This document shows positions 5,866 to 61,897 of a stretch of DNA of 64,000 bases, piece by piece; position 1 is the stretch's first letter; each line of letters begins with the position of its first letter. The notes beneath the pieces were generated by a model. It saw nothing but the letters and a program-made list of their open reading frames with translations. It was not told the DNA's origin and did not search any database. The position numbers were made by a program, and so were the translations under genes. The DNA is from a virus. The stretch lies in IMG/VR virus record IMGVR_UViG_3300007734_000758, one strand, 5' to 3'.

Positions 5866-7581
5866 TTATGCTTCCTTAAATTCATCTACAATAATTGCAA
5901 TGCTTATAGAACTGCTACCCTTCGCTTCTCGTATATCTAGTTTTGTTTTGTATTTTTTGCGACCCATTTTAGTGATGAATTCTAAGTATATGCCCGCTTT
6001 GGTTACAGTGTCGACCGTTAATATCGATTCTGATTCCAGTTTCAGACTATCTCTACCCTTAAATTCTGTAATGTGACCGACAGTTCCTTTCGATGATGCT
6101 ACTACTTTATAAAATGTAGGATTAAATCCACTCAACGAAACTCCGAAGGCAGTAAGAGCCAAAAACGGATCTTTGTATTTTGACATTATGGGATTGATAC
6201 TTTTCAATACATTGAAATCTTCAAAATATGTAGTCAGTAGTCTATAAGCTGCAGATTTCACAAGTTTCTTTCTAACTATAGCCATTGGATCCGGTTCTTT
6301 AGATACTTTACTAGAACCGAATGTATTTTTATAACCAAATTTTCGTACAGCAATGCCATAACGTTTTTTCTCAGTGTCATACGATGTTTCGATGGTACCT
6401 GCTATTTTTTTAGTTATTTTAGTTTCGCCCTTTAAAACTAGTAATTCAGGACGCGTGAAATCAGATCGTTGAGACCCTAACTGTTCTCCTGATATATTTT
6501 TCACCACTAAAAATTCTTTTGCTCGCCCACTGACAGCCTCTTCTTCTTTCAATGAAATCGCAAATACTAAAGGATCGGTAGATTCGAATAATGAATTTAA
6601 TCCTACTTGAAGTACGTTTCCACTTTTATCTTCAATGTTAATTATAGAATTATTTTTCTTCGATTCCGCTACAATTCTATTAATTTCACTAACCGAAGAT
6701 TTCTTATATAAATACACATCACCCGGACACCATTTATCTTTTGGTATTTTTGTTATATCAGCTGCTACTTTTTTAATTTTTTCGTACAAGTCACCCCTGT
6801 CTATAATTAAACCGGGGCCTATGTTGCTCTGTATTGTTCTTGCTGCTGATATTGCATTTAAATATAATTTTTTAGTTTTTGGATCCAACTCAACGTCGGA
6901 AAGAAGTAATTCTATCCCAGAAGTAACATAATTTGAAGCTTTCTGTCCATAGTACGCGGCGCTGATTGAATTGATATTAGATTCTATATTAGATCGTATC
7001 GATGCGTTGTTAGTAACACGATTTTCAAATTCACCCAATAACTTATCATTACATTTATAAAAAAATACTACTAAACCTTCCTTAAAGTCTGCAGTCTCCG
7101 TTCCCTGTAATCCGGCTTCTGTTTCCGTCGTCGTGAATGTTCCTTTACTAATATCAGAAAGTCGTATGAACTCACCGTCATTATCACCGGTTAGTGGTAT
7201 AACTGCATTCCTACCAAACATAGAACGCATTTTATCTTGCCGGGCGCTGAGATTTTTTATACCGTCTAACATTTCAAGCGTTTCAAGAAATGATTTATCT
7301 ATTATAACTTTTGATTTATCCTTTTCAAGAACAAACGGTTCACCACTAGATATCTTTTCAATAAAGCCCCTAAAATATTTTTCTTTATTTAAGTTCGCGG
7401 GATCGAATTTGGCCTCCGAAATAATATTCCTAGATGCTAGATTAGGTGAATCAATTCCCATCTCAACCAACACATTTTCTAACACCAACCAGTCAGCCGG
7501 ATTATTTACGTCCGGATATCCTTTATCGCATCGATAGGACCATTCTAATAAAATTTTATCTAATAATTCAGGAGTAATCAT
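5866..7581 (-). CDS. large late protein; putative PD-(D/E)xK endonuclease with an N-terminal EWSYR..GYPD domain
   Basis: DKWCPGDVYL...ISLK resembles a restriction-like nuclease core; ATATTTATA motif 5 nt upstream. Confidence 0.55.
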   Translation of the reverse strand: MITPELLDKILLEWSYRCDKGYPDVNNPADWLVLENVLVEMGIDSPNLASRNIISEAKFDPANLNKEKYFRGFIEKISSGEPFVLEKDKSKVIIDKSFLETLEMLDGIKNLSARQDKMRSMFGRNAVIPLTGDNDGEFIRLSDISKGTFTTTETEAGLQGTETADFKEGLVVFFYKCNDKLLGEFENRVTNNASIRSNIESNINSISAAYYGQKASNYVTSGIELLLSDVELDPKTKKLYLNAISAARTIQSNIGPGLIIDRGDLYEKIKKVAADITKIPKDKWCPGDVYLYKKSSVSEINRIVAESKKNNSIINIEDKSGNVLQVGLNSLFESTDPLVFAISLKEEEAVSGRAKEFLVVKNISGEQLGSQRSDFTRPELLVLKGETKITKKIAGTIETSYDTEKKRYGIAVRKFGYKNTFGSSKVSKEPDPMAIVRKKLVKSAAYRLLTTYFEDFNVLKSINPIMSKYKDPFLALTAFGVSLSGFNPTFYKVVASSKGTVGHITEFKGRDSLKLESESILTVDTVTKAGIYLEFITKMGRKKYKTKLDIREAKGSSSISIAIIVDEFKEA

Positions 7582-7634
7582 ATACTATAAATATCGATTG
7601 CTAAGATTTAAATGTAAGATTGTATTAAGACGAA

Positions 7635-7660
7635 AATAGGCACTTGACGGTGTGCCTATT
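7635..7660 (-). terminator. hairpin terminator
   Basis: aataggcac-ttgacggt-gtgcctatt. Confidence 0.6.
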
Positions 7661-7685
7661 CGTATGGTTTATTTAAAATTTAATT

Positions 7686-8000
7686 TTATGCAACTTTCCA
7701 CTGAATTTCACCTTCCCAATTTTGTGAAAGTGCTGTGGATACTCTCCATGTATATCCATTTTCTTGAAGCCAATCATTGGCCATTCTTGTGAATTTTTTA
7801 ACTGATGTAGGCGATTTAAAATTTATATCACCTTCGTCAGTAAATAAATTTAACCACTCATCTGCATGTTCTGGCTTAATTATATTTTTTTCTACTAGGT
7901 TCCAATCATCGATAACTGCACCGGATTTTAATGTTCTCGCTTCCGCTACTGCTTTTCGAACCTCTTCGCGGATTAGTTTACGGAATTCTGTTGCTTTCAT
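7686..8000 (-). CDS. hypothetical protein with cargo-type leader MKATEFRKLIREEV
   Basis: Leader shared with 53861 and 56079; ATATTTATT motif at 8038-8046. Confidence 0.75.
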   Translation of the reverse strand: MKATEFRKLIREEVRKAVAEARTLKSGAVIDDWNLVEKNIIKPEHADEWLNLFTDEGDINFKSPTSVKKFTRMANDWLQENGYTWRVSTALSQNWEGEIQWKVA

Positions 8001-8075
8001 TTTATTTCTTTTTTTGGTTTATAAAAAATCAATTTATAATAAATATCTACTCAGTAAAAAAACATACTAAAATAT

Positions 8076-8474
8076 CTAAATCTTTACCCATTTACCAGAT
8101 GAATCCAATTGAAACGATCCTACCCATCGCATTTGCCAGGCAGTAGGTTCAATTATTGAAAGAAACATTTGACCGTTATCCCTCTCATACAAATGATAGG
8201 TGTGTCCGACAGTGGGTATAAAACTATATTCAGCGTGTCTATATATGAGGTCATTCCAACCGAATTCCTGGACATACTTATGATATAACTCTTTTAACTC
8301 CTGGAATTTAGTTTGAAAGTAATGGTTTACATTTGAAACTCCCGTCTGTTTCCAACTATCAGCATTAGCCAATTCTATCTTAGGTGCACCGATATTAGAA
8401 CCATATGTTAATTCTTTGGCATAATATCCACGTTCCTCACTCCATACAACTAGATCCGGTTTGTCAGTATTCAT
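8076..8474 (-). CDS. DUF2452-like protein
   Basis: F.P.VG.TYHLY....FLSIIEP..W motif. Confidence 0.65.
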   Translation of the reverse strand: MNTDKPDLVVWSEERGYYAKELTYGSNIGAPKIELANADSWKQTGVSNVNHYFQTKFQELKELYHKYVQEFGWNDLIYRHAEYSFIPTVGHTYHLYERDNGQMFLSIIEPTAWQMRWVGSFQLDSSGKWVKI

Positions 8475-8499
8475 TATTCTTCTATAATTATTAACTCAA

Positions 8500-9033
8500 T
8501 TAACGTCTCCAATTACGAAAAACCCATTCCACATCATCAGTAACGGCTTCTTTAGAAGAATGCACTGCAGGTGTCGGATTTGATTCATGTATCAATCGCA
8601 ACATATGTATCAACCGGCTACGTTGTTTGAATGATATCCTATATGATTCATTCTGATTGATTACATACTCAATGGCAGGTTGTAATCCATTCGTTTCATA
8701 TATATCCATCATTGAAGTACCTACTGTATCGTATGCTTCTTCCGATTCATCCGCATCGACCAATTGGTTAACGGGTTTATCGGAAAGTTTTGTCTTTGAC
8801 TTTGTTTGTTTGCCAGGTCGTAAACCACGCATAATTCCAAACCCAGTCCTGGATCCTAATTTGTTAATGCGTTCTGCAGTATGTTTGTCTGTAATCTCAA
8901 TTGTATTGCCTGTCTTATGGTATACAACATCGATCACACCATACGCTTCTGTGTCTGAACATTGAATGCACTTATTGTAACCTAAAGCAATGCGTTTAGG
9001 GTGCATCTCTTCCCTACATTTTATACAATTCAT
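8500..9033 (-). CDS. protein with N-terminal DksA/TraR-like C4 zinc finger
   Basis: CIKC...PKR..LG...CIQC. Confidence 0.6.
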   Translation of the reverse strand: MNCIKCREEMHPKRIALGYNKCIQCSDTEAYGVIDVVYHKTGNTIEITDKHTAERINKLGSRTGFGIMRGLRPGKQTKSKTKLSDKPVNQLVDADESEEAYDTVGTSMMDIYETNGLQPAIEYVINQNESYRISFKQRSRLIHMLRLIHESNPTPAVHSSKEAVTDDVEWVFRNWRR

Positions 9034-9083
9034 GACATTAAGTTAAGAAATCTACCCCTAAAATACAAATGCGAATTGTGCCT

Positions 9084-10073
9084 TTATAGATATGGACCTG
9101 CAGTCGGTCCTGCCTGAGGTTGCTTTGTTTGTTTCTTCGGTTCCTCTTTCGGTTTCTCCGGTTCGGGCATAACAACAGTTTCAATTGTAATTGGTTCCTG
9201 CTGTTCTATAACAATTTTTGGCTCTTCAATTATTGGTTTAGGTACAACTGTATTACGGTTCCTACCAAAAGCAAAACTAGCAGCAATAACCAATGATATT
9301 GCTAAAGGATCGAACACGAATATGATTAGTACAATGAACCAGTTGATAACCACATTGGTGGGACGCTGTAATAGCTCTGACAAATACTTTAGGGGGCCGA
9401 TTTCAGCTGCTAACTTGTCGGACGTATTTATATCTAATATTTTTAGATCCAATACAGTTATACTATCGTTTACGCTTGACATCTTTGCTGAGAGTTCATC
9501 ACGTTGTTTGATAGCAGAGTTTAACTGTTGTTCGAATACCTTACGCGCACCACTTGAACTCGTAGTTATAATCTGCCCGGTTTCTTTATCCTTATATTGG
9601 TTTATTGTACCTGTAGAGATACCCGAACGTAAATCAGATATACTCTTATCCAGGGACGCCTTCTCTGATTCATAATCAGTTAGCATTTCACTGAAACGTT
9701 CGCGTCTTAATTCTAATGACTGAGTTTGAACCTCAACAGTTTGTAATTCATTTGCCGAAGACTGATAACCCTGACTCAACAAACCATATATACCTGCAGA
9801 AGTGATAAGGGACAGTACGACTAAAGCAGTGACCAGGTATATACGCAGTGCCCTGTTTATCTCTGACCAATAGTTATGCAACAGGGTGGCTGATACAATT
9901 TTAGATGCTTCCAAGAATCCACCCATAATCATTACTGGAACACGTACACCTGCAAATAGCATTGAGAGTCCTAATATAGAATAGAAGGCCGCCGACGAGG
10001 AGAGACCAATGGCACAGACTAATATTATAAATGGTAAAACACGTTTCATATTAATAATTATTACATGCCCCAA
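9084..10073 (-). CDS. membrane protein with coiled coil (likely start MKRVLP)
   Basis: Three N-terminal TM segments, long coiled coil, C-terminal TM with FDPLAI, P/E/K-rich tail. Confidence 0.75.
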   Translation of the reverse strand: MGHVIIINMKRVLPFIILVCAIGLSSSAAFYSILGLSMLFAGVRVPVMIMGGFLEASKIVSATLLHNYWSEINRALRIYLVTALVVLSLITSAGIYGLLSQGYQSSANELQTVEVQTQSLELRRERFSEMLTDYESEKASLDKSISDLRSGISTGTINQYKDKETGQIITTSSSGARKVFEQQLNSAIKQRDELSAKMSSVNDSITVLDLKILDINTSDKLAAEIGPLKYLSELLQRPTNVVINWFIVLIIFVFDPLAISLVIAASFAFGRNRNTVVPKPIIEEPKIVIEQQEPITIETVVMPEPEKPKEEPKKQTKQPQAGPTAGPYL

Positions 10074-10423
10074 GGTATAACGGATTTCGCATATACCGGG
10101 AAAGAAGACTTAATTAGTTTCGTTAAGAACAAACCAATTAACATTGTACGTTGTTCACCATTCAATGTAACCTTAACATGTACAGTCCCTTCATCCGTTT
10201 TATAGATTTCATCCAAACGATACCGTTCAGTTTCATTCCAATATTCACGGCCTGTGCATAGTATATGGACATCTTTTGTTACTGTGCTGCGGATAGTGAC
10301 TGCACGGTAATCGTGTTCCGATCGTCCTGGTTTATAGAAATGTATAAAGTTTGACCGCAATACATCATCACCATGTACGAAGTCTGGATGTATATATCTT
10401 GGATCGTAACGTCTTACCGGCAT
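10061..10423 (-). CDS. hypothetical protein
   Basis: ORF coupled to queD. Confidence 0.6.
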   Translation of the reverse strand: MPVRRYDPRYIHPDFVHGDDVLRSNFIHFYKPGRSEHDYRAVTIRSTVTKDVHILCTGREYWNETERYRLDEIYKTDEGTVHVKVTLNGEQRTMLIGLFLTKLIKSSFPVYAKSVIPWGM

Positions 10424-10995
10424 TAAATCTTCCTATCGTCATATTCAATTACACCCTTTCCATAGGCATAGTCTTGAATCTCCTGTCCCCTAGCATGGAA
10501 GAAGTTCTTACGTTCTTCAGATGTAATACTCTCAAACAAACATTCAGTGTAACAATTCGGAGTCTCGTAAATCAATACTTTATGTATGTGCAATTTAGTA
10601 TTGGAATTAGCATACAGAGTATCAGTCAATATCTGCATTGCTAAGAATATCTCTTTTGCAATATTTTCTACTGAAGGATTACAGTATTCATTCTCACCGT
10701 TTAATGACATCAACCATAACTTAGAGTTTAACTCTTTAGCGGTTTGTATCACCTTTAAATCATGCGGATTTAAAATCATGCCGTGATCTATAATATCATT
10801 TATCCATTGGCAGAAGACACGTTTGATTTCTTTGAAATCGATCGCATAACCAATCTCTTCTATATTCTCAAAAGAAAAGGTTAATTCGTAATTGTACGTG
10901 TGCCCGTGTAGATTAAAGCATTGGAAGCGTTCCGACATCACCCGATGTCCGCTATCAAAGTTTCCTTTCCTAGTAATATATTGTATTCGTTTCAT
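10423..10995 (-). CDS. queD: 6-carboxytetrahydropterin synthase
   Basis: FDSGH, C.NLHGHTY, IDF, DH, NPSVENIA, YETP motifs. Confidence 0.9.
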   Translation of the reverse strand: MKRIQYITRKGNFDSGHRVMSERFQCFNLHGHTYNYELTFSFENIEEIGYAIDFKEIKRVFCQWINDIIDHGMILNPHDLKVIQTAKELNSKLWLMSLNGENEYCNPSVENIAKEIFLAMQILTDTLYANSNTKLHIHKVLIYETPNCYTECLFESITSEERKNFFHARGQEIQDYAYGKGVIEYDDRKI

Positions 10996-11041
10996 AAATT
11001 AAATATAAGAAATATTATTAAATTTTACAAGTGTGTCTATC

Positions 11042-11194
11042 TTACATCTCTTCTATCACACCTAATGCTTCTGCTAATATCAAACCGATAGCAGTCACTG
11101 TCAGGCTGATTGGTAACGCTACATAGGAAATAATCCTAACTGCTGACTTAATAAAACTAATTGTCTGATGTTTTTTTGGATCTGGATGATTCAT
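11042..11194 (-). CDS. small membrane protein (likely start MNHPD)
   Basis: ISFIKSAVRI...ILAEALGVIEE hydrophobic ORF. Confidence 0.55.
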   Translation of the reverse strand: MNHPDPKKHQTISFIKSAVRIISYVALPISLTVTAIGLILAEALGVIEEM

Positions 11195-11211
11195 ACGTTT
11201 TCTTTTTTTTG

Positions 11212-11757
11212 TTAGTAAACCCACGGTTTATTACCGCTGTATTTAAATAGATTTCCGACTTGATTGTGATAACAATTGAAACAGATAAACCGTAAATTTC
11301 CTAGTGCATAATTCTTTAGGTCACCATCCATAAATTCCAGCACAATAGGTACATTGTTGTCTGTTATCCTAGATTCATTATATCCGCAGACTTCACACAT
11401 GTTTTCCTTTATGCCTTCCTTTATCAATCGTTTCTTTAATTTACGTCTGTCGTAGTTAGGGTTCTTATTATCGAATATATTTTGTAATGGCACCGGTGCA
11501 CCGACGGATCCTGGCGTGGCTGTATTTCGCAGTTTGCTCTTTAGCATTCCGACACCACCCTGGTTCTTTTGCATTTCATATAGGGTAAGTCCGGTAGCGG
11601 TGTCTATATACCTTGAACTGTACTTTTTAAATGTAGTTATATCTACTCGTAAGAATTTAGCAGCTGCATAACAGCTTTTAGTATGTGCCATTGCATACCT
11701 AATCTCAGCTTCAGATAAATTCTTTGATGGTATCATAATTCTATTTAAACCATACAC
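11212..11757 (-). CDS. HTH + HNH-like protein (possibly degenerate homing endonuclease)
   Basis: LKKRLIKEG..CEVCG...DGD..N...NLRFICFNC; the canonical catalytic His appears replaced. Confidence 0.65.
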   Translation of the reverse strand: MYGLNRIMIPSKNLSEAEIRYAMAHTKSCYAAAKFLRVDITTFKKYSSRYIDTATGLTLYEMQKNQGGVGMLKSKLRNTATPGSVGAPVPLQNIFDNKNPNYDRRKLKKRLIKEGIKENMCEVCGYNESRITDNNVPIVLEFMDGDLKNYALGNLRFICFNCYHNQVGNLFKYSGNKPWVY

Positions 11758-12113
11758 TCAGCACCATTCTCATTATCTTCAAACACTGAAACGTATACAC
11801 AGTCAAATGCTGTAAGCAATTCTTCTGCTAACATTTCGCATGATTTGGCTCCGAATAGATGCGTTCTATAATCATCACGATAGTAACGATTTTTCAAATA
11901 TTGTATTACATCTCGTTTAAAAACAATAAATTCAACATCACGGTCTGAATGTGTGACTTGTTTCTTAAGAGTAATGTGCCACATGTGTCGATGCAAATCT
12001 TTGAGGAATCGAACCTCTTCAAGTCCCGGAATACTTTCTACTCCAGGAAAACAATGCAAGCCTTCTACCTGCAGTTGTATAATTACGTTAGTTTTTGTTC
12101 CCATATTCTTCAC
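11745..12113 (-). CDS. QueD-like T-fold paralogue; DpdL-like (putative CDG decarboxylase)
   Basis: EGLH, LKDLHRHMW (LxxxHRHx-aromatic), H.DRDVEF, SCEMLA, EDNENG. Confidence 0.65.
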   Translation of the reverse strand: MKNMGTKTNVIIQLQVEGLHCFPGVESIPGLEEVRFLKDLHRHMWHITLKKQVTHSDRDVEFIVFKRDVIQYLKNRYYRDDYRTHLFGAKSCEMLAEELLTAFDCVYVSVFEDNENGAECMV

Positions 12114-12351
12114 GTCTTACTTTTATATGTAACCCAGCTTTTGATAATACGTATCCGTATTTTATTGCTGTATTTTTATTTCCTGTATATAACTTCGATT
12201 GTCCACAGTTGTTTGTTATAATAGCCAACTGCTCACTTCTAATCCTATCATAATGTAATGCCGATTCTAATATGAATATAACATCTTCAAATGAGTGGTG
12301 GTTATCGTTAAATAACCAAACACTATATTGATCCTTTACCTTTTCCACCAT
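12088..12351 (-). CDS. clpS: ClpS-like adaptor
   Basis: VWLFNDNHHSFEDVI...G.S....G. Confidence 0.65.
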   Translation of the reverse strand: MVEKVKDQYSVWLFNDNHHSFEDVIFILESALHYDRIRSEQLAIITNNCGQSKLYTGNKNTAIKYGYVLSKAGLHIKVRREEYGNKN

Positions 12352-12553
12352 AACGTTTTAATATATCAGATTTAATAGACTCTAAACGTTGACAACGTTC
12401 ATACTCTTGTGTCCCTTCAAAATACTCAATCAACTTATCTAACAAATCTAACTTCATTGAATTGGTAAATGTTCTTGGCCAGGGGTTTCTGGATACAACC
12501 AATTCATATGCATCACGCAATGTAACATCTAAATAATTGTTATTATCTGCCAT
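12323..12553 (-). CDS. UVR-domain-like small protein
   Basis: IEYFE..QEYERCQRL. Confidence 0.5.
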   Translation of the reverse strand: MADNNNYLDVTLRDAYELVVSRNPWPRTFTNSMKLDLLDKLIEYFEGTQEYERCQRLESIKSDILKRYGGKGKGSI

Positions 12554-12690
12554 GACTTAAGTATAAAAAAACAATTTGAAACTACCAAATTATCTATTTG
12601 ATACAATATAGAATATTACTGGTAGTTGTACTATCATGTTATAACAACTAATGTACAAATTACATAAATCCATTCTGTTAAATAACTTCA

Positions 12691-13029
12691 TTATTTTTCC
12701 TCAGTTTCTTTCTCACCGCCAGTTTCTTCCTCACCACCCTCTTCCTTTTCGGCTCCTTTCTCCGTATCCGCTTCTTTCTCTTCACCATCATCAGATTTTT
12801 TAGTGGCAGTATCTAAATCAATTATATTTGTTCCTACTAATAAATGGTCTACCATACGGTAATCGAATGGAACCATCTCACCTGTAGTTCGCATACCATA
12901 TCCATAATATGGGTCTTCGATATCTTCAAATTCTACAATTCGAAGATATTCATTATCTACATAAACTTTTACTGGAATCCTGGTAACGAAGTATTGACCA
13001 ATCAATACATTAGAAAAGTATTTTTTCAT
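12691..13029 (-). CDS. hypothetical protein with acidic tail
   Basis: ORF immediately downstream of SOD. Confidence 0.7.
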   Translation of the reverse strand: MKKYFSNVLIGQYFVTRIPVKVYVDNEYLRIVEFEDIEDPYYGYGMRTTGEMVPFDYRMVDHLLVGTNIIDLDTATKKSDDGEEKEADTEKGAEKEEGGEEETGGEKETEEK

Positions 13030-13030
13030 A

Positions 13031-13945
13031 TTATTCTTTTATCCTTTCATTAACCTTATTCCAACAAACAACATTAAAGAAGTCATCAATATAAGATTTG
13101 CGGTCTGATTTATGTTTTACATAGTATGCATGTTCCCACACATCCATTGCTAATAGAATCGTACCACCGAAGTTCGGATCCATTAATGGATTATCCTGGT
13201 TCTGTGTGGTAAGTATACGCAATTCACCATTATCTAATACCAACCAAACCCAACCAGAGCCGAATACGTTTAAGCCAGCTTCTTTAAATGTTTCCTTAAA
13301 CTTCTTATAGTCAACAAACTGTTCAGTGATTAATTCAGCAATACGACCTACTGGTTCTGGATTTTCATTCGGCATCATATTTTCAAAATACAATACGTGA
13401 TTGTAATATCCACCAGCATTATTTCGTACCTTATCTGGATACCTATTCACTACGGCTAACAATCCAATAATCGGTTCTACTGTCCCGAAATTTAGATTGA
13501 TATTGTACTCTTTAATAGCTTCGTTTAATGTATCTGTATACTTCTTAAAGTGCTTTTTGTAGTGCTCTTCCATTGTTTCAGTATCGATGAATTTCTTCAA
13601 ATCATCTAATTTATACTTCAACCTGGGACGTGAGAATGATTCAGGAATAGAGGCTTCCTCTTCCATCAGTAATGACTTAAGAGTAATCTTACCTTCGCTT
13701 ACCGTATTCATTGGAACCTGCTTGGTTTCCATTCCTGTCTTGATATAGTCATTAGCAGTAACTAAATAATCATTAGCTATACTAATCTTATATTCAATCC
13801 ATTCAGGTAAATCCACATCATTACTTAATTGGCGGTAGATTTCTGCAGCGTTACGGGCACATGAATAGGCTTGTTGCTTTGCCATTTCACTTTCATGTGT
13901 CTTGTAACCGAATTCTTCGTAATTTTCGTATAATCTTTTAGACAT
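13031..13945 (-). CDS. sod: Fe/Mn superoxide dismutase with ~100-aa N-terminal extension
   Basis: HYKKH, GGYYNH, FGSGWVWL, NQD, DVWEHAYY. Confidence 0.92.
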   Translation of the reverse strand: MSKRLYENYEEFGYKTHESEMAKQQAYSCARNAAEIYRQLSNDVDLPEWIEYKISIANDYLVTANDYIKTGMETKQVPMNTVSEGKITLKSLLMEEEASIPESFSRPRLKYKLDDLKKFIDTETMEEHYKKHFKKYTDTLNEAIKEYNINLNFGTVEPIIGLLAVVNRYPDKVRNNAGGYYNHVLYFENMMPNENPEPVGRIAELITEQFVDYKKFKETFKEAGLNVFGSGWVWLVLDNGELRILTTQNQDNPLMDPNFGGTILLAMDVWEHAYYVKHKSDRKSYIDDFFNVVCWNKVNERIKE

Positions 13946-13969
13946 ATCAATAATAAATATCTAGAATTT

Positions 13970-15163: not shown

Positions 15164-15168
15164 ATGAT

Positions 15169-51092: not shown

Positions 51093-51458
51093 TTAACTTA
51101 AAAAGCGAAGCTTATAAAGAGTACTATTCACCAACTCTTCAACAGTATCGATCTGATTCTGAATATATGAATCTTGTATTGCAGACCTGGTGCTACTGAT
51201 AATTGAAAGGAGTGCTTTCAAATATCCGATAACAGTCGCTTTTCCGCTGTATTGAATAACATTATAGCTTTGATATCCTTCTAAAATACCGTACTTACCT
51301 TGGTACGATTCTACCAACCCATCAACTAATCCTACAATACCATCGTAATATGCGCCTAAAGCAACATGCTCGGCATAAGAATTAGTTTGTAAATGAAACA
51401 CATGAGTCTGTGTTCTAGAGTGCATTAAATGCGATATTAGTTTAACGAACTGTTCCAT
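51093..51458 (-). CDS. ferritin/Dps-like protein (DUF5856-like)
   Basis: H..H.QT.SYAEH.AL..YY, D...E.YQGKYG, LYKL.FL; late motif at 51464-51472. Confidence 0.7.
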   Translation of the reverse strand: MEQFVKLISHLMHSRTQTHVFHLQTNSYAEHVALGAYYDGIVGLVDGLVESYQGKYGILEGYQSYNVIQYSGKATVIGYLKALLSIISSTRSAIQDSYIQNQIDTVEELVNSTLYKLRFLS

Positions 51459-51772: not shown

Positions 51773-52348
51773 TTAAATAATTTCGTCAATAAACTTATAT
51801 CGTAGTGCTTCTTCTGAGGATATATACCAATCTAATTTAGTACGTTTTATCGTATCTAACTGCTTACGTTTTATGGCCGTTTTCGAGATTAAGTAATTAT
51901 CATACTGTGCCATAATTCGAGCAGTCTCTTCTAAATTCTCTTTTAATGTCGATAGCTTTTCCTGTACGGGAGTATCCAAACATTCATGATACATATATGT
52001 TGCTAATGAATGACCGAACCTTTTATGACCAGAAACTAAAATTAATAGTGCCATCGACATAGCATGGCCATAACATATTGTATGTACTGGAGTCTTAGAT
52101 GTTTCAATAACGCCAATCAATCCAAACCCATCATATATAGTACCACCGGGGCTATTGATAATAATACGAATCGGTTTGCGTTCATAACCTACCACAGATT
52201 CTTCAGAAGAATCGTCTTCATCATTTATATCGCATATTGTCTGTATCATATCGGCCACGTTCTCATGGTTCACCTCACCGGATAATATGATCGTTCTGGA
52301 TAAATTATCTTTATCGATACTCTGTTTCTCTTTACGTGCCATAATCAT
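51773..52348 (-). CDS. clpP: ClpP-like serine protease
   Basis: INSPGG, G.AMSMA, H, D.Y.S.EEA. Confidence 0.88.
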   Translation of the reverse strand: MIMARKEKQSIDKDNLSRTIILSGEVNHENVADMIQTICDINDEDDSSEESVVGYERKPIRIIINSPGGTIYDGFGLIGVIETSKTPVHTICYGHAMSMALLILVSGHKRFGHSLATYMYHECLDTPVQEKLSTLKENLEETARIMAQYDNYLISKTAIKRKQLDTIKRTKLDWYISSEEALRYKFIDEII

Positions 52349-53253: not shown

Positions 53254-53545
53254 AACTTTCCTCTTTAATTAATTTATGATAGTCTCGTAATTTCGCAGCT
53301 GCTTCATAATCTTCTATCCGTACTGCATATGATTCCATATCGACTAACATCCTATCAAAATCCATGTCAAACTCTTCCTCTAATATGGATTGTATCATTA
53401 GTTTATGAATCAATGAAAGATTCGAAGATGCTAATTCAGGATGATAATTGTATGATTCCAACATGCTGGTAGGAAGCTCAACGCCCGACTGAATTAACTT
53501 AAGTAATATAGCAGCTTTTAATCTACCTACCAAATCATTTTTCAT
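53225..53545 (-). CDS. UVR-domain protein
   Basis: AV..EDYEAAAKLRD. Confidence 0.65.
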   Translation of the reverse strand: MKNDLVGRLKAAILLKLIQSGVELPTSMLESYNYHPELASSNLSLIHKLMIQSILEEEFDMDFDRMLVDMESYAVRIEDYEAAAKLRDYHKLIKEESYDKTTDAAR

Positions 53546-53556
53546 AACATTGTATT

Positions 53557-53826
53557 TTAGTTTGGAACTTCTTCGGAAGGAAATTCACTTTCTATTCTTA
53601 ATTTGACGTCATTGTTATTTTTGTTTATCTTTTCAATGACATTTCCTAATAGAGTAGCGCCTATTATACTACCGAATACCGCAATGAAATCTGCAGATAA
53701 TGTAGTACCACCACTCAAATCTACAATGCCCGCGGCAAGTAAAAATAGAAATGAAATCAATCCAATAACTCGTTTACTTGAAACGTCATCACTACTTGAT
53801 ACTAATTTTTTAACGAATGCCTTCAT
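53557..53826 (-). CDS. two-TM membrane protein (holin-like)
   Basis: SSKRV followed by two TM segments; late motif upstream. Confidence 0.5.
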   Translation of the reverse strand: MKAFVKKLVSSSDDVSSKRVIGLISFLFLLAAGIVDLSGGTTLSADFIAVFGSIIGATLLGNVIEKINKNNNDVKLRIESEFPSEEVPN

Positions 53827-53829
53827 ATC

Positions 53830-54156
53830 TATAAATATGAATCAATTCGATAACGGTGCTTTAATTGTTGGGTGTGATATATACGTCTCCTGTAACACCA
53901 CTTGCTCCTCCGGTAATTAATATAGATGAACCGTCTGTAAAAGTAACTGTGTATCCTTTATATCTACCATTTGACTTGAAACTTTCTATTGTTTTGCCTT
54001 TAAGAGAAGCATTTGGATTATTCATTAAATTATCTTCGTTCAGAATGGTTTGAACTTCTTCCCTTATGATTTGTTGTAGTTCTGATTTTTTCATAGTTTA
54101 TCTTTATTATAAATATGAATCAATTCGATAAAAGTGCTTTAATGGTTGGGTGTGAT
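53830..54156. repeat. 49-bp direct repeat (53830-53878 and 54108-54156) comprising the thyA 3' end plus the late motif
   Basis: 46/49 identical by manual alignment. Confidence 0.92.
53861..54094 (-). CDS. small protein with cargo-type leader MKKSELQQIIREEV
   Basis: Leader nearly identical to that of 56079. Confidence 0.75.
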   Translation of the reverse strand: MKKSELQQIIREEVQTILNEDNLMNNPNASLKGKTIESFKSNGRYKGYTVTFTDGSSILITGGASGVTGDVYITPNN

Positions 54157-55355: not shown

Positions 55356-55423
55356 TCCGTTATTAATTTTTGTAAGAACTCTTCTTTTGTTAATGGAGTT
55401 CCATCTTCGTGTTTATATTTCAT
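55352..55423 (-). CDS. 23-aa mini-ORF coupled to thyA (MKYKHEDGTPLTKEEFLQKLITE)
   Basis: Lies between the promoter and thyA, with ATGA overlap. Confidence 0.4.
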   Translation of the reverse strand: MKYKHEDGTPLTKEEFLQKLITE

Positions 55424-55427
55424 AACT

Positions 55428-55458
55428 TAAATGTAGGAAATTAATTTGAGATTTACAA
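55428..55458 (-). promoter_or_regulatory. early/middle promoter TTG-N20-TACATTTA
   Basis: Motif match. Confidence 0.65.
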
Positions 55459-56073
55459 CACCTTTACATAAATCTCATCACCATCTATTTTAGTGATTTC
55501 CATTCGAGTGTTTCTTGGAAAAATAAACTCTGCTTCACCTTCTGCCATCATCATTGGTAGTGGTGCTTGTGCTGCTTTGTTAAGTGCTCCTGTCAATATC
55601 AACACTGCACCTTTCCCAGTACGTCTTGCAAAATGCTCTGCTGTTGTGTAGTCCTCTGTTGTGGACATGAATGCCTTGTCTATAAAATTTTTAGACCTTG
55701 CTGTAATTATCGTTTGGTATAACTCTTTACCAATACCTCTATATAACTCGCTTCCAGTAAACTTTGGAGCTACCTCTATGTACTGATCTATTAGTGCTGC
55801 CTTTGGTGGTAGTTTGTCTGCTCGTAGAGACTTATTCATCCTACCATACAAGCTTGCTGTGTAGCCTTGTGCAGCTTTGTTTAACTCTTTTGTTTTCTCT
55901 ATCCCCACCTTTTTTACTATGGGTAGTAGTCTGTTTAACTCACGCTTGTAGCCTGGCTTTTGTCTTTCTTCGTTGTGGTACTTATTTTGGACAAGATCAA
56001 AGCGTAACAGCTCTTGTTCTATTTGAGCAACAGTATCATTGGCTCCTTCTAGTAGGTCTTTAAGCTTGATCAT
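55453..56073 (-). CDS. ADP-ribosyltransferase (VIP2/Alt-like R-S-E class) with leader MIKLKDLLE
   Basis: YT...Y..MN..LR, LYRG, FMSTT, EAEFIFPR. Confidence 0.85.
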   Translation of the reverse strand: MIKLKDLLEGANDTVAQIEQELLRFDLVQNKYHNEERQKPGYKRELNRLLPIVKKVGIEKTKELNKAAQGYTASLYGRMNKSLRADKLPPKAALIDQYIEVAPKFTGSELYRGIGKELYQTIITARSKNFIDKAFMSTTEDYTTAEHFARRTGKGAVLILTGALNKAAQAPLPMMMAEGEAEFIFPRNTRMEITKIDGDEIYVKVL

Positions 56074-56078
56074 GTTAC

Positions 56079-56558
56079 TCAGTTTGATTGATAATCAGCT
56101 CCAAGCTTCTGTGCAAGTTTTTCCCAATAACCATCACTCCTATCATCCTCTATGACTAACACTCTTTCGGTTATGGGATTGAACCTTTTTGCTCCAAAGT
56201 CAAACATAGCTTTAATAATATCGCCAGTTACACCTGAATATTTGTTTGCTGTTGCGTTAGCTACGACTAGGTTAAGGGTCTCACCTTCTGCATACAAGTT
56301 GAAAGCAAGGTAGTAATGTCTACGATTACCCTCTCCCCACATTGATGCTGCTGACGGATCATCTTTATCTGTGCTAACATAAATGTAATCTTCTTGATCG
56401 AAATATAATTTTACTTTTGGATATTTTTTTGCAAATATTTGTGTGATTATTGGCTTTACCTCATTAAGTTCAGCTTCTTCCAATTCACCATCAGTTAATT
56501 CTTTAAGTACTTTATTAATTTCTTCTTTAATAATAGTTCTTAATTCTGATTTTTTCAT
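56079..56558 (-). CDS. protein with cargo-type leader MKKSELRTIIKEEI; possible GNAT-like C-terminal fold
   Basis: Leader, late motif at 56574-56582, S.GYWEKL end. Confidence 0.7.
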   Translation of the reverse strand: MKKSELRTIIKEEINKVLKELTDGELEEAELNEVKPIITQIFAKKYPKVKLYFDQEDYIYVSTDKDDPSAASMWGEGNRRHYYLAFNLYAEGETLNLVVANATANKYSGVTGDIIKAMFDFGAKRFNPITERVLVIEDDRSDGYWEKLAQKLGADYQSN

Positions 56559-56736
56559 TGGGTGTCCTTTAATAATAAATATGGTGATAAATGGAAAAAC
56601 ACTACTTATCTTTAACTTTTTTTAGATAATCTTCGTAAAGTTTGTCATCTGATTTACCACCCCAATTACGCCAACCAGCCCCATAAATCGGGATGGAATA
56701 TGTTTCTTTATCTGAGTTGTTCGTTTCCTTCATAAG

Positions 56737-57501
56737 TTATACGCCGGTCTTTTTATTCCAAATAGTTACATGTAACCTATCTGTAAATCTGACACCTTCC
56801 CTGATAGCTAGGTCAGCAGCTAATTCCCTAGTATTGTTTAATTCTTCCTGCGTCTGTCCTTCAGGCATAATTACGATTTTATCTTTTGTAATAAAACCAG
56901 GAGTTATATAATCGTTTTGTATTTCATTCCAATCAGCTTCACTGTTAACCACGAACTTAAAGATAGAATTCGGTAAACTTCCCATATATGCAAGAACAAG
57001 TGGCTTGATCCTAACTTTTTCTTTCATCCCGGAATTGTTTAATTTCGGGCTATTGTTCCACCAATCTACTAATTCTACGAACTCGGTTGTTGGCATAAGA
57101 ACTGCCTCGTTTTCTACCTCAACATACGGTTTAAATCCATATTTATCCTTAAATGCTGTTAAGAAGGCAATACATTCCTTCTCCTGTTTTAATGGAGACC
57201 CACCGGTCAATATCAAATGCTGGCCGGTTTTGAATCTTTCTACTAGTCCGATAGATTCAAACATATCGAAAATCTCATCGAAGGAATATTCATTGCCCTC
57301 AGGCCAAACATCTAACGTGTCACACCACACACATTTCAATGTGCAGCCTTGAAGCCGTATAAATGTAGATATCACACCCGCATGCGGGCCTTCGCCTTGT
57401 ATAGTATCTGAAAACATTTCGGCGATTGCTAATTTATCCGTACCATTTACTTTTTTGGTGAAGGTAGGTTTCTGTTGTATTAATGTTATTGGCATAACCA
57501 T
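56737..57501 (-). CDS. queE: 7-carboxy-7-deazaguanine synthase (radical SAM)
   Basis: E.F..IQGEG, FIRLQGCTLKCVWCDT, LTGG.P, SPKL, FKFV, RLH..IW. Confidence 0.92.
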   Translation of the reverse strand: MVMPITLIQQKPTFTKKVNGTDKLAIAEMFSDTIQGEGPHAGVISTFIRLQGCTLKCVWCDTLDVWPEGNEYSFDEIFDMFESIGLVERFKTGQHLILTGGSPLKQEKECIAFLTAFKDKYGFKPYVEVENEAVLMPTTEFVELVDWWNNSPKLNNSGMKEKVRIKPLVLAYMGSLPNSIFKFVVNSEADWNEIQNDYITPGFITKDKIVIMPEGQTQEELNNTRELAADLAIREGVRFTDRLHVTIWNKKTGV

Positions 57502-57544
57502 TTACTTTTTTAAAAGATAAGAAAAAACCTTAGGGCAAACAAAT

Positions 57545-57937
57545 TTATTGAATACTTAATTTTTTAATCTTATTCTTGGCTACTGGAATTGTTACAACTA
57601 ACAGACCATTTTCTAATTTGGCCGTTGCCCTTGTAACATCATATTTAGCAGAAATTTTGTAGCCTAAGTTAAAAGAACTACGTTTGATACCACGATATAA
57701 CGTTTTTCTGGTATCGGTGTTTGTTTGTTTGTTATAACTGATATGTACACATGCATCCTCTAAGGTTACATCCACATCATCTTTTGTTAAACCAACACAA
57801 GCCACCTCAATTGATAGTGTCTCTTCGGTTTCATAAATGTCTACGGGATGTACTCTAGATACTGTGTTCGTTAATGCACTGAAAGCATTGTCTGTCGTGT
57901 TAAAGAAATCACGAAATAGGATGTCAAAGCTATCCAT
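57545..57937 (-). CDS. small heat-shock protein (Hsp20)
   Basis: PVDIYE, G....DV.V, RGI..SSF, A.LENGLL.V. Confidence 0.9.
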   Translation of the reverse strand: MDSFDILFRDFFNTTDNAFSALTNTVSRVHPVDIYETEETLSIEVACVGLTKDDVDVTLEDACVHISYNKQTNTDTRKTLYRGIKRSSFNLGYKISAKYDVTRATAKLENGLLVVTIPVAKNKIKKLSIQ

Positions 57938-58036
57938 AAAAACTCCTTTTTTTTAATTGTTACTTGAATCAATTAATCTATTTGTACTGCCCTAAGGTCT
58001 ATTATAAATATAATGAAACAGTTTGAAAACTACAAA

Positions 58037-58465
58037 TCAAACACCGGTACTTCCATGACCGCCGGTTCCACGTGCAGTCTCTCCCAATGAATCTGTTTCT
58101 ACCAATTCTGTTTGCGGTACTGGCATAATTACCAACTGTGCGGCTTTGTCGCCTATCATATAACGTTTAGAGAAGATGTTATTTATCTTTGTAAATGATA
58201 TCTGAATCTCCCCACGATAATCTGCATCTATAACACCAACAGAGTTTGTTAGGCGTATATCATAATTACGTATACTACTTCTAGGAAACACTAACCCTAC
58301 ATACCCGGGAGGGATTTCTAATGCAATATCCGTACCGTATATTACTTTCTTATCATCGTTTTCAATTATCTTACTTACATACAAGTCAAAACCTGCATCT
58401 GTGGGATGTGCCTTAGATGGCATTACTGCGGCAGCCGCTAAACGTTTTACTTTAATCTGAACCAT
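58037..58465 (-). CDS. dut: trimeric dUTPase
   Basis: AGFDL, PRSS, GVIDADYRGE, AQLVI, RG.GG.GSTG. Confidence 0.95.
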   Translation of the reverse strand: MVQIKVKRLAAAAVMPSKAHPTDAGFDLYVSKIIENDDKKVIYGTDIALEIPPGYVGLVFPRSSIRNYDIRLTNSVGVIDADYRGEIQISFTKINNIFSKRYMIGDKAAQLVIMPVPQTELVETDSLGETARGTGGHGSTGV

Positions 58466-58480
58466 AACCTAATATAAGAA

Positions 58481-58750
58481 TTATTTTCCTTTTCTCCAAC
58501 CGCCACCGGCTTTCTTATACATTTTAGCTGCCCATGCATTTGCATACGCTGACGGGTAAACATCAAACTTCTTTTTGGCTTGACCCTTATAGTAAGACCA
58601 CTTTGAGGGATCTGTAGGTATATTCTTTTCTAAGAATAAATTTAACCTTTCCGTTAATTTTTTGAGGGTCACCTTATCGTAACCTGAACCATATGGCGCT
58701 GATTTGCCAGTATCGGTATATGTTTTTGGATCTAAATTTTCTTTTTTCAT
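58481..58750 (-). CDS. conserved basic phage protein
   Basis: KKKFDVYPSAYAN...YK..GG.W. Confidence 0.7.
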   Translation of the reverse strand: MKKENLDPKTYTDTGKSAPYGSGYDKVTLKKLTERLNLFLEKNIPTDPSKWSYYKGQAKKKFDVYPSAYANAWAAKMYKKAGGGWRKGK

Positions 58751-58759
58751 TTAAATTAT

Positions 58760-59245
58760 TTATTTTAAGGGTCCGCCCATTAACCAAGCGTCACATGTAC
58801 GATCGCCGGCACATTTAAACCAAAACAACTCGCAAAATCCTAAGTTAGCGAGTTCATTTATTTGTTTACCATCATCACCCAAAGCCTTTTCTATCTTTGC
58901 AAGAGTAGTTTTACTTTGATCGAACGCAGCACAATTTTTACACCTACTAGTCTTTGCGTGCTCAACAGTGGTATTCCATAATTGCGCCTTCTGTTCCCAA
59001 AATTCTTCCGACGTAGCCTCGTCCCTAGGATTCAATGGACCGTAACCATATTCTTTTATAGTATGATTTCTATTTAAGGTATTAAGATCCAAATCTTCTA
59101 TCGCATCTTCAGGATTCACTGGTTTGTTACCGATTTCTTTTTCTTTTTCAATAGCAGCTGGAGTAATATACCCAGGAAAATCAGCTAGATTTTTTGATTC
59201 TAAAACAATATCCTTTGCGATATTTTTTAATGAGGTAAGTTTCAT
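58760..59245 (-). CDS. Cys-containing protein with leader MKLTSLKNIAKDIVLE
   Basis: YGP.NP, C.NCAAF, GFC...FKC...RTCDAW. Confidence 0.7.
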   Translation of the reverse strand: MKLTSLKNIAKDIVLESKNLADFPGYITPAAIEKEKEIGNKPVNPEDAIEDLDLNTLNRNHTIKEYGYGPLNPRDEATSEEFWEQKAQLWNTTVEHAKTSRCKNCAAFDQSKTTLAKIEKALGDDGKQINELANLGFCELFWFKCAGDRTCDAWLMGGPLK

Positions 59246-59253
59246 ATTAATAA

Positions 59254-59934
59254 TTATATAGTTGGAATTAGTTTGTATGATTGTTCTCCGAACAAAATCA
59301 TCGATCTTGTATCTGCCTGTTTAAATGCATCAATCTTATTTTTTCTTGCAAGATCATTATAACGTACTATGGTAGGAATGCAGGCTAACCATTCACTCGA
59401 GTGCATTATCGATTCTACACATCTCGTAGCCTGCAGCATTTCTTCAATAGAATCATAATCCCATTCAATATGAACAATAGGTTCTACTCGATTGTTGTTA
59501 TAGAAATCTATACATAGATCCAAACCACATTTAAAGTTTACAGATAATATTCTGAATAATTCCGGACGTCGTTGTGCATATGAACTTAATTGCTCTCTAG
59601 CAGCACCTACTATAGTAAACTTAAATACGAAGTGACTATGATCTAATACCAAAGAACTATTATCCTTATTTAACTGCTCGAACCAAGTATACAGCATCGC
59701 ATTTGTACCTGCAGTCTGACCACCATCTTTATACCAAGTATTGTCTTTATTTAATTGTATACCGTTATGTAGGTAGTAGGCCTGTTCTATCTCATTCAAA
59801 TCAAATCCCTCATGGTCAATGTGACAGGCACCGTTAAGTAACAATTCTTCAGCAATATCATCAGGTAATGGATTACATACTACCTGGGTTTCTATTGTCG
59901 GCAATATATTACACTGATAATCGAATGATACCAT
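59254..59934 (-). CDS. hypothetical protein
   Basis: Coupled ORF. Confidence 0.7.
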   Translation of the reverse strand: MVSFDYQCNILPTIETQVVCNPLPDDIAEELLLNGACHIDHEGFDLNEIEQAYYLHNGIQLNKDNTWYKDGGQTAGTNAMLYTWFEQLNKDNSSLVLDHSHFVFKFTIVGAAREQLSSYAQRRPELFRILSVNFKCGLDLCIDFYNNNRVEPIVHIEWDYDSIEEMLQATRCVESIMHSSEWLACIPTIVRYNDLARKNKIDAFKQADTRSMILFGEQSYKLIPTI

Positions 59935-60329
59935 TATACCATTATTTTTATCATTTTTATAAAATTCGTTTTACTATCAGAAAAGTCCGGATCCTTATCA
60001 TCGAAGTATTTAGTTTCAAACGTTCCTCCAGTCTTTTCAATCAAACAAACCGTAGCATCAAATTGTTCCAATCCATTGAGCATATATATGATACCAAAGT
60101 AAGCATATTTATCAGTTACTCTCGCCATATAACTAGCATCGGAAATAATTTGACTCATTTGACCTAAATCAGTTAATGGTGCAATAAACACATATTCTTT
60201 GTCTTTTAATCCTAAGTATTTAAACATAGGTTTACAATTGAATTGTGTATAGAATTCATTGAAAAATGGCATTGCCATTACTGAAGGATCTAGATGATCT
60301 TCTTTAAGGATTGATTTTAACTTTATCAT
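59934..60329 (-). CDS. protein with leader MIKLKSILKE
   Basis: Leader shared with the ART gene. Confidence 0.72.
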   Translation of the reverse strand: MIKLKSILKEDHLDPSVMAMPFFNEFYTQFNCKPMFKYLGLKDKEYVFIAPLTDLGQMSQIISDASYMARVTDKYAYFGIIYMLNGLEQFDATVCLIEKTGGTFETKYFDDKDPDFSDSKTNFIKMIKIMV

Positions 60330-61897
60330 TTTCCGGGTTTATTTTGTAATTTCTTATTGGCTAAGATTTCAGATATACGTTCCATATCTGGAACGTTATA
60401 TGGTTTATCAGTTAATGCATTAATCAAAGTCAAATTAACCTTTTTATCAGATAAACGACGGGCTACTGCATTTAAGTTTTTCACACTGTCATCCATGAAT
60501 TTTATATTCTGATATCCATTGTTTACTTGCGTTTCAATCCAATCTGCTTTTACTTCAGGGTCGCTACTGCCTACTGCAATAACATAGGCATTAATGCCAT
60601 AATTATCACGTAAATGCTTCATTATTGGAAATGCAACGCGTCTTGCAGTTAAAATCGTAGTTTTAATAGATGGATTGCGTAATGACCGTTTAATTTGGTC
60701 TATGTTACGGCTAATAGGCAATGAATTGTGAATGATTTTATCAAAATTGGAAAAATCATAACGTTCTCCAGGTTTCAATCTATATGTAGCAAAAGTATCA
60801 CTTTTCAATTCATATTTCGAACCATCCGGACGTTTTACAATTACAGTTGCATTTGTCTTTACCAATGTATCATCAAAGTCATATACATGTAATGTTTTTC
60901 CATGGGCTTCGGAAACGCCCGTTTTCACTTTGATTGGATTACGTACACCTAACTTTTCAATAACCCGTATAGCCTTATCTATATCAGCAGGATTACTAGG
61001 TGTATATTCTCTTAGTGCGATTTCTTTTTTAATTCCCGTTTTCACGAGATTAACTTTAATTTTATCTTTACCTATTGCCCATGCAGCAGTAAGTCTATGA
61101 TGACCATCGTATATAGCCATCTCACCGTCTGGGAACTGAACTACGTTTATTGTAGCCGTATCATCAAAACTCGTTATTGTTTGTTTAACTTTGTTGCTTT
61201 GTATGTTTGGTTGAGTTATATGAACATCGTTAACAGATACAAATTCAATATTATTTTTGGCTTTATTTTTTTCAAATGCCTCTATAACTTCACTGTAAGA
61301 ATGTTTACTTTTATTAAAAATTCCATCTATTCTCTTTGCATCGTTAAATATTTTGCCGTGTGGCAGTCTATCAATTTTATCATAAGCTGTATTAACGCTT
61401 ATACTTTCTTTAACTCCTGTTTTAACTTTAATAGGTTTTTGTCCTTTACTACGTTCTCCACCTTTTTTAGCATCGCCCCCCTTTTTCTGAGCAGCTCTTT
61501 TTCTTTTTACAAATGCTGCTCTACCTGCTTTCCCTAACTTACGAGCCTTTTCTTTTGATAAACAAGCTGCATACGCGTCACCTTCTTTTGCATCACCACA
61601 CTTGCCAACACGATCACCACTCGTATTATAGCGATCCCAACCGCCCCCGCCAACACCGCCCTTCTTCCCTTTACCGAACCAAGCACGCAAGTCTTCTTTT
61701 AGTTTACCGGTTAAGAGTTTAGCACCGAATACGGTTTTAGGTAAATCTTCTGGATATACCATCATGTCATCGCCCTGTTGTGCCAAATATTTACGAAGCT
61801 TTTCTAACTTCTTCATATGACGTTCCGTTTCGGCCTGGTTCATAGTAGCACCCTGCTCCCGAACTAACCGATTATATATATCCATCAATTTAATCAC
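60326..61897 (-). CDS. multidomain protein: leader + basic Cys domain + ParB/Srx-like domain + HAD-like phosphatase
   Basis: IYDGHHRL; LHVYDFDDTL, ILTAR, K, FMDDS..N; repeated PIKVKTGVxE linkers. Confidence 0.78.
   Translation of the reverse strand: MIKLMDIYNRLVREQGATMNQAETERHMKKLEKLRKYLAQQGDDMMVYPEDLPKTVFGAKLLTGKLKEDLRAWFGKGKKGGVGGGGWDRYNTSGDRVGKCGDAKEGDAYAACLSKEKARKLGKAGRAAFVKRKRAAQKKGGDAKKGGERSKGQKPIKVKTGVKESISVNTAYDKIDRLPHGKIFNDAKRIDGIFNKSKHSYSEVIEAFEKNKAKNNIEFVSVNDVHITQPNIQSNKVKQTITSFDDTATINVVQFPDGEMAIYDGHHRLTAAWAIGKDKIKVNLVKTGIKKEIALREYTPSNPADIDKAIRVIEKLGVRNPIKVKTGVSEAHGKTLHVYDFDDTLVKTNATVIVKRPDGSKYELKSDTFATYRLKPGERYDFSNFDKIIHNSLPISRNIDQIKRSLRNPSIKTTILTARRVAFPIMKHLRDNYGINAYVIAVGSSDPEVKADWIETQVNNGYQNIKFMDDSVKNLNAVARRLSDKKVNLTLINALTDKPYNVPDMERISEILANKKLQNKPGK

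Follow-up and report, generated by a model that had tools for sequence, protein, structure and literature searches.

Portable N-terminal leaders ending in hydrophobic-x-Glu on unrelated proteins of an uncultured T4-like phage: candidate capsid-targeting propeptides

We analyzed a stretch of 64,000 nucleotides (nt), hereafter the window, from the IMG/VR virus record IMGVR_UViG_3300007734_000758, in which unrelated open reading frames (ORFs) begin with short recurrent peptides that fall into two classes, referred to here as the A-type and B-type leaders. The virus record is complete (157,151 bp, with terminal repeats), and the window is the reverse strand of its positions 91263-155262; coordinates of the whole record are given below as genome positions. 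Nearly all genes share the same orientation and are encoded by the minus strand of the window. The phage is uncultured, aquatic, and T4-like; it shares 40% identity with Microcystis phage Mel-JY01 in the DNA polymerase, and in the capsid protein 59% with Mel-JY01 and 57% with Flavobacterium phage vB_FspM_immuto. The eight N-terminal peptides quoted in the original prediction, which was made from the letters of the window, are all found in the sequence; the coordinates attached to them are the low (stop-codon) ends of minus-strand ORFs, and the leaders lie at the high ends (Table 1).

The A-type leader is about 20 amino acids (aa) long with the pattern MKxSELxxIIREE, and a second hydrophobic-x-Glu is found at residues 18-20 in all six copies, three in the window and three outside it (genome 56752, 66535, and 67188). 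The B-type leader is about 10 aa long (MIKLKxLLxE) and heads four clear genes, three in the window and one outside (genome 57739), besides diverged copies. Such B-like copies stand at the heads of genome 66796 and 7786, and the former encodes a full-length homolog of a family whose other members open with the canonical B-type leader. At least 12 proteins are tagged in this genome. As had been claimed, the leaders terminate in hydrophobic-x-Glu. They are also specific to the N-terminus: over six frames, a regular expression for the A-type leader matched the genome six times, each at residue 2 of an ORF and nowhere else, and all four matches of the B-type core are at ORF starts. In 80 related loci, the B core was matched 37 times in ORFs of 40 aa or more, and 27 of these matches come immediately after a start codon. 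After removal of the leaders, the proteins show no similarity to each other in BLASTP (all E > 0.01), which, together with the placement at ORF starts, bears out the idea of portable peptide modules on unrelated proteins. At positions with the same amino acid, synonymous codon differences were found in 47 of 124 cases for the A-type (38%) and 18 of 27 for the B-type (67%), and the DNA upstream of leader genes is unconserved except for a promoter motif. Since codons vary while amino acids stay, the conserved unit is the peptide rather than a DNA cassette, and selection acts on the peptide.

One B-type protein (genome 57739-58122) has an Asp-rich DPVGKEDxDIDNDGD module after its leader, which matches several PHROGs at quite differing positions and hence is another mobile module.

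Two of the enzymes that the original prediction placed among the tagged proteins, an ADP-ribosyltransferase (ART) and a superoxide dismutase (SOD), are confirmed by Pfam, the latter with both of its domains. The ART matches PF03496 at 33.1 bits (cut-off 23.4), and its catalytic residues R112, S137, T139, E180, and E182 (the R, S-T, E-x-E set) are invariant in 16 orthologs. Nearly all orthologs at 50-86% identity carry the B-type leader, and the linker behind the leader is variable. The family profile matches the ART domains of SpvB and ExoT. T4 Alt is a capsid-packaged ADP-ribosyltransferase that is injected with the DNA. The window protein resembles Alt in being an ART of a T4-like phage with a short N-terminal hydrophobic-x-Glu peptide, a putative propeptide, and an intact R, S-T, E-x-E set, but it has 206 aa compared with 682 aa in Alt. 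T4 Alt gave only a weak local match to the ART family, at E-x-E (hhalign probability 5.6%), and the window ART is at best a functional analog of Alt and no ortholog. A complex prediction of the prohead protease (see below) with ART residues 1-60 gave no answer (score 0.00), which counts neither for nor against an interaction.

The metal-ligand region D-V-W-E-H of the SOD is conserved. In the closest SODs (209-210 aa, 58% identity), the protein opens with a B-type leader exactly at the position of the internal copy in the window ORF, so this copy, already pointed out in the original prediction, is a genuine leader relic. Other SOD lineages have quite different leaders. Among 68 distinct SOD N-terminal extensions, 67 contain hydrophobic-x-Glu, the last of which mostly ends five residues before the domain and is usually followed by Ser, Ala, or Gly, and SODs of 195-200 aa have no extension. 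An extension with hydrophobic-x-Glu is present at all 80 viral SOD loci examined, some of which encode long multi-module chains. In large non-T4-like phages (records G009 and G013), in which no S77 protease or Gp23 was found, SODs also have extensions of 30-160 aa with a hydrophobic-x-Glu ending three residues before the domain.

The 523-aa protein consists of four modules, namely an unassigned one, a basic Gly-rich one, a weak ParB-like one, and a HAD-like phosphatase. The earlier assignment of this protein as ParB/HAD is therefore solid for the HAD-like module, while the ParB-like match is below the Pfam cut-off; a nuclease, also listed among the tagged proteins at that time, was not confirmed by family searches. 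A PDB sequence search with the 523-aa protein gave no match. Modules 2 and 4 are found elsewhere as separate ORFs beginning with a B-type leader: residues 66-166 correspond to a stand-alone protein of 165 aa, beginning at its leader Glu, and residues 337-478 match a stand-alone 174-aa HAD-like protein, starting just past its leader. Three joints separate the modules (Table 1), the third lying seven residues ahead of the HAD DxDxT motif. The joints, two of which are degenerate copies of the B-type leader, align with the leader ends of stand-alone proteins, so that module boundaries fall at the presumed cutting sites.

In two further proteins the leader is a variant or is not separable. The module of about 115 aa in the 161-aa protein recurs in 620 cluster representatives at any position, often with hydrophobic-x-Glu and then Gly ahead of it. 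The peptide MITPELLDKILLE at the start of the 571-aa protein, which had been proposed less firmly as a leader, is not free-standing, as its last residues begin a conserved domain that is internal in longer homologs; these have a separate B-like leader upstream.

Table 1. Leader genes, leader relics and promoter motifs in the window (coordinates of the window, with strand).
Feature	Coordinates	Leader	Remarks
571-aa protein	5866..7581 (-)		Phage-only family; N-terminus leader-like, runs into conserved domain
ATATTTAT	7587..7594 (-)		13 nt before 571-aa ORF
104-aa protein	7686..8000 (-)	A-type, codons 1-20, 7941-8000	Body without assigned function; no Pfam or PHROG family
ATATTTAT	8039..8046 (-)		46 nt before 104-aa A-type gene
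Fe/Mn superoxide dismutase	13031..13945 (-)		86-aa N-terminal add-on; PF00081 and PF02777 on 99%-identical protein (P0040)
Internal leader relic	13658..13690 (-)	B-type relic	Directly ahead of SOD domain
ATATTTAT	13953..13960 (-)		15 nt before SOD ORF
77-aa protein	53861..54094 (-)	A-type, 54035-54094	No family in Pfam/PHROG searches
ATATTTAT	54109..54116 (-)		22 nt before 77-aa A-type gene
ADP-ribosyltransferase, 206 aa	55453..56073 (-)	B-type, 56047-56073	
159-aa protein	56079..56558 (-)	A-type, 56499-56558	Body possibly GNAT-like (weak lead)
ATATTTAT	56575..56582 (-)		24 nt before 159-aa A-type gene, then ART gene
161-aa protein	58760..59245 (-)	Variant, 16 aa, 59198-59245	Mobile module of about 115 aa
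131-aa protein	59934..60329 (-)	B-type, 60300-60329	Body without assigned function
523-aa protein, GTG start	60326..61897 (-)	B-type, 61856-61897	
Joint 3 of 523-aa protein, residues 321-330	60908..60937 (-)		Second copy of joint 2's linker; ends V-S-E
Joint 2 of 523-aa protein, residues 155-164	61406..61435 (-)	Degenerate B-type	Ends V-K-E
Joint 1 of 523-aa protein, residues 59-68	61694..61723 (-)		Ends L-K-E; residue-by-residue alignment to leader end of stand-alone 165-aa protein
ATATTTAT	62650..62657 (-)		Heads unit of endolysin-like gene, 523-aa protein, 131-aa protein, and further genes

The head genes of this phage lie beyond the window. A gp21-like protease, suggested earlier as something to look for elsewhere in the genome, was found at genome 64851-65465 (Peptidase S77, PF03420, 100.7 bits) and aligns with T4 gp21. 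Also present are a Gp23-type capsid protein (255.7 bits, genome 68765-70453), an acidic scaffold-like protein, a portal, and a large terminase. In the capsid protein, V-T-E followed by A (residues 56-59) is aligned to the cleavage site of T4 gp23 between L-T-E and A, and the scaffold-like protein begins with a short conserved L-K-E. Several leader proteins are indeed part of the head-gene module, as three of them (79, 131, and 81 aa) are encoded between the protease gene and the scaffold gene; the small leader proteins matched no PHROG family. In a comparison that took in 45 related loci, hydrophobic-x-Glu by residue 12 was found in 64 of the 165 ORFs of the protease-scaffold interval (39%), compared with 53 of 313 elsewhere (17%; p = 2e-7).

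Some other genes near the head module and in the window were noted as well. The portal ORF (genome 60162-63188) has 1008 aa, about twice the normal length, with HNH-endonuclease-like matches at residues 473-549, and therefore may contain an intein or an inserted homing endonuclease. The large terminase (665 aa, genome 58144-60141) has about 100 additional residues (roughly 278-382) relative to a 523-aa relative, and in other relatives its gene is split in two or enlarged to 1017 aa. A gene for an HNH/homing endonuclease (504 aa, genome 70570-72084) with its own copy of the promoter motif ahead lies between the capsid gene and the tail genes. A second protease besides the gp21-type one, of the ClpP family (PF00574, 83 bits), is encoded amid non-structural genes at 51773-52348 (-) of the window. 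From 13970 to 47369 (-), the window holds about 35 co-directional genes for proteins of 220-480 aa, with lower G+C (0.32-0.34 at 16-28 kb), and several have Rossmann-type GxxGxxG N-termini suggestive of sugar-nucleotide/glycosyl-transfer enzymes. A 532-aa ORF on another genome stretch (L004:10276-11874) looks GroEL-type chaperonin-like at its N-terminus, as judged by eye only.

The promoter motif ATATTTAT is the dominant word upstream of genes. Genome-wide, it occurs 43 times on the gene strand and 11 times on the opposite strand, and 36 of the 43 gene-strand copies lie in the intergenic 6% of the genome (p = 3e-37), 7-125 nt before the start codon, in most cases 12-46 nt and most often 13 nt. 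The enrichment looked for by the original prediction is thus seen in strand bias and intergenic placement but not in the count within the window (17 seen, 17.7 expected). As the motif stands ahead of sheath, tube, portal, baseplate, adaptor-like, and endolysin-like genes, it is taken to be a promoter of structural genes that is presumably active late. Of the ten clear leader genes, nine are in units headed by it, compared with 59 of 180 other genes (p = 5e-4), and the remaining one is two genes downstream of a copy, which supports the link of leader genes to this motif, itself shared with structural genes.

In seven genes the motif starts exactly 13 nt before the ATG (ATATTTATAGTAT and then ATG; e.g., window 7582-7594 and 53826-53838), a spacing that suggests leaderless or nearly leaderless late messages. 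A Dps-like ("starvation-inducible") gene (window 51093-51458 (-)) and a PhoH-like gene (L006:8556-9215) each lie directly behind the structural-gene motif. A second upstream word of the type TTCTTATATTTAG precedes about 12 genes without the main motif (window 58466-58480, 10996-11041, 9034-9083, and others), for example a dUTPase-like gene at 58037-58465, and may be an early or middle promoter.

Both leader types are widespread in IMG/VR, where the counts that follow are among the matches listed. The B-type scan, in which only leader residues 1-8 were fixed so that position 10 was free, gave 134 matches in at least 120 stretches, 111 of them at ORF starts. Glu is present at position 10 in 110 of the 134 (82%), although the search did not impose it. 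The 104 complete ORFs form at least 58 clusters, mostly without a Pfam family, and the rest include NUDIX, PAP2, lysozyme, P-loop kinase, HAD-like, and 2H/Acb1-like proteins. With the A-type leader, the scan gave 166 matches, of which 138 are at ORF starts and 129 have a second hydrophobic-x-Glu in residues 15-24, and the 156 complete ORFs (median length 104 aa) form at least 118 clusters. The tagged bodies have a pI above 8 in 59% (A-type) and 74% (B-type) of cases, against a background of 28-42% in four related genomes and 60% in a fifth. Among leader-bearing records that are at least 90% complete, 10 of 11 have an S77 protease. In the cultured Flavobacterium phage vB_FspM_immuto_2-6A (NC_055915), leaders of the A-type, the B-type, and a third type are found, in part within the head module, and ATATTTAT has the same strand bias (31 vs. 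4). A literature search on the leader strings found no paper, and none was found that reports a virion proteome of the closest isolates.

The third leader (Met-Glu-Asn-Phe-Asp-Leu-Lys-Lys-Phe-Leu-Val-Glu-Asn-Lys-Leu) heads five proteins of vB_FspM_immuto_2-6A and three of another record, G001. Its positions in NC_055915 include 1803, 103806, 117631, 118632, and 125241, and one copy is directly behind the protease gene.

Internal proteins of phage T4 carry a capsid-targeting sequence (CTS) that is removed by the prohead protease after hydrophobic-x-Glu. In the T4 record NC_000866, IPII, IPIII (MKTYQEFIAE), gp24, gp67, gp68, gp22, gp21, and Alt all open with a short peptide ending in hydrophobic-x-Glu, and the leaders of IPII, IPIII, and gp24 (MAKINELLRE) are 10 aa long. 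Mutagenesis of the CTS identified positions 4 and 7 as targeting residues and positions 8 and 10 as processing residues (PMC9026906). The B-type leader matches these key positions with L4, L7, L8, and E10, and is close to the 10-residue propeptide of gp24. Common to the two systems are also an N-terminal peptide of 10-19 aa on unrelated proteins, a gp21-family protease, and a conserved capsid-protein site. Unlike in T4, two leader classes occur within one genome, without sequence homology of leaders or cargo to those of T4; the repertoire is far larger and richer in enzymes (no fewer than 12 proteins in this genome, and in IMG/VR at least 58 B-type and 118 A-type cargo clusters); and leader relics act as joints of multi-module chains. 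In the giant phages phiKZ, 201phi2-1, and SPN3US, head ejection proteins are cut after Glu by distant gp21 homologs (PMC9026906, PMC5694885). The system proposed here would be similar in that short motifs mark the cleavage sites of many proteins inside the head, which are cut C-terminal to Glu and lose their propeptides, and giant-phage processing is a possible parallel for the leader-tagged SODs of large non-T4-like phages. In contrast, a common portable leader of this kind has not been reported in giant phages, their cleavage motif is another one, and their cargo is known by proteomics.

Based on these data, we consider it probable that the A- and B-type peptides are capsid-targeting propeptides in the sense of phage T4. 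All computational tests that might have parted the leaders from head assembly tied them to it, and the leaders most likely function like the T4 CTS, without homology to it. Compared with T4 the system is expanded in having two or three classes of leader, a large number of enzymes, and joints within polyproteins. We suggest that leader genes are transcribed along with structural genes from the ATATTTAT promoters, and that the leader would dock the new protein onto the scaffolding core of the forming prohead. The S77 (gp21-type) prohead protease would then cut after the Glu of the leader-terminal hydrophobic-x-Glu, and would likewise cut the leader-derived joints in the 523-aa protein and the SOD ORF, releasing mature modules in the head. 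Proteins retained with the DNA would reach the host upon infection. Candidates for such injected cargo are the ART, whose function would correspond to that of T4 Alt, as well as the SOD, the HAD-like phosphatase, and small proteins that are mostly basic.

Several observations weigh against this interpretation. The association of S77 proteases with leaders is confounded by shared ancestry. T4 internal proteins, gp67, and gp68 gave no BLASTP alignment with the leader proteins, so only the pattern is shared with T4 leaders, and the pattern alone can mislead, as in the large terminase, whose N-terminus resembles the A-type leader and was rejected as one because this stretch is conserved as part of the enzyme itself. 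In the A-type leader, the first Glu is followed by another Glu and not by a small residue. The T4 late promoter TATAAATA is read by gp55. In this genome the T4-type TATAAATA occurs 10 times on the gene strand, against 43 copies of ATATTTAT, which is not the T4 late consensus; no gp55 homolog was found in the genome by tblastn-type search, blastp, or phmmer, and a gp55 candidate at genome 19759-20466 had no PHROGs match. A late promoter of the T4 type is therefore not supported for this motif. Two near-complete large phage records have a leader-like SOD extension, one of them together with a B-type ORF, and neither an S77 protease nor a Gp23 capsid protein is detectable in them; in these phages, either the tag is read by another protease too or it has another role. 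Finally, we know of no role within the capsid for cargo of the SOD, HAD, or NUDIX type.

Some of these observations suit other explanations. The leaders may mark parts of the prohead core or scaffold that, once assembled and cleaved, are for the most part expelled or retained as filler for DNA packing, rather than injected effectors, with the enzyme-bearing cases being a minority or active inside the head. T4 gp67, gp68, and gp22 are precedents for this, most A-type proteins are small (median 104 aa among the matches listed) and without a known domain, the scaffold itself opens with a short L-K-E, and one of the three leader proteins beside the scaffold gene is from a family held at that position in relatives. 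Yet ART and SOD with intact catalytic residues retain the leader across wide divergence, and many leader genes are far from the head module, and we regard such a purely core or scaffold role as unlikely. Chance resemblance or simple paralogy of small proteins is hardly credible: amphipathic N-termini rich in Lys, Glu, and Leu are common in AT-rich genomes, and 17% of control ORFs have hydrophobic-x-Glu by residue 12, but the leaders are strictly N-terminal and stand on unrelated bodies in many independent cargo clusters.

It is also conceivable that hydrophobic-x-Glu is incidental and the N-terminus serves another purpose, such as a translation-start or messenger RNA element, or an amphipathic helix for oligomerization or membrane contact. 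Many late genes begin 13 nt past the motif and their messages may have nearly no 5' leader, the leaders are AT-rich and predicted to be helical in character, and phages in which no S77 protease is detectable have similar extensions too. We find this improbable given that synonymous sites vary while amino acids are kept, that Glu is found unforced at position 10 in 82% of the matches listed, and that relics survive at internal module joints, where they are irrelevant to the start of translation. There is a slight chance that the leader is recognized as a tag by another enzyme, either the ClpP-like protease, whose gene is in the window, acting with a host unfoldase, or a modifying enzyme. ClpP was set aside as the cutting enzyme, being found in only one of five complete leader-bearing genomes, all five of which have the S77 protease, and the leader motif agrees with the known cutting rule of gp21.

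The leader with its hydrophobic-x-Glu would provide a sequence rule for predicting virion cargo from metagenomes, and vB_FspM_immuto_2-6A, with the same leader types and promoter motif, offers a cultured test system. On a broader and more tentative level, the head could, throughout a large clade of aquatic T4-like phages, be a delivery vehicle for ready-made enzymes that are injected ahead of phage gene expression; we hold this to be somewhat less than an even chance. Under the same reservation, two or three portable leaders and protease joints derived from them might load dozens to hundreds of unrelated proteins. The cargo would then comprise ART, SOD, NUDIX and HAD hydrolases, P-loop kinases, and a 2H/Acb1-like phosphoesterase, possibly as a fast-evolving arsenal for host takeover and counter-defense. 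Should the leaders function as in T4, the products of "auxiliary metabolic genes" such as those for SOD, NUDIX, and HAD proteins may be delivered as proteins at infection, and the loading of exchangeable proteins into the capsid would amount to a general strategy that extends beyond T-even coliphages and is much expanded in abundant aquatic phages.

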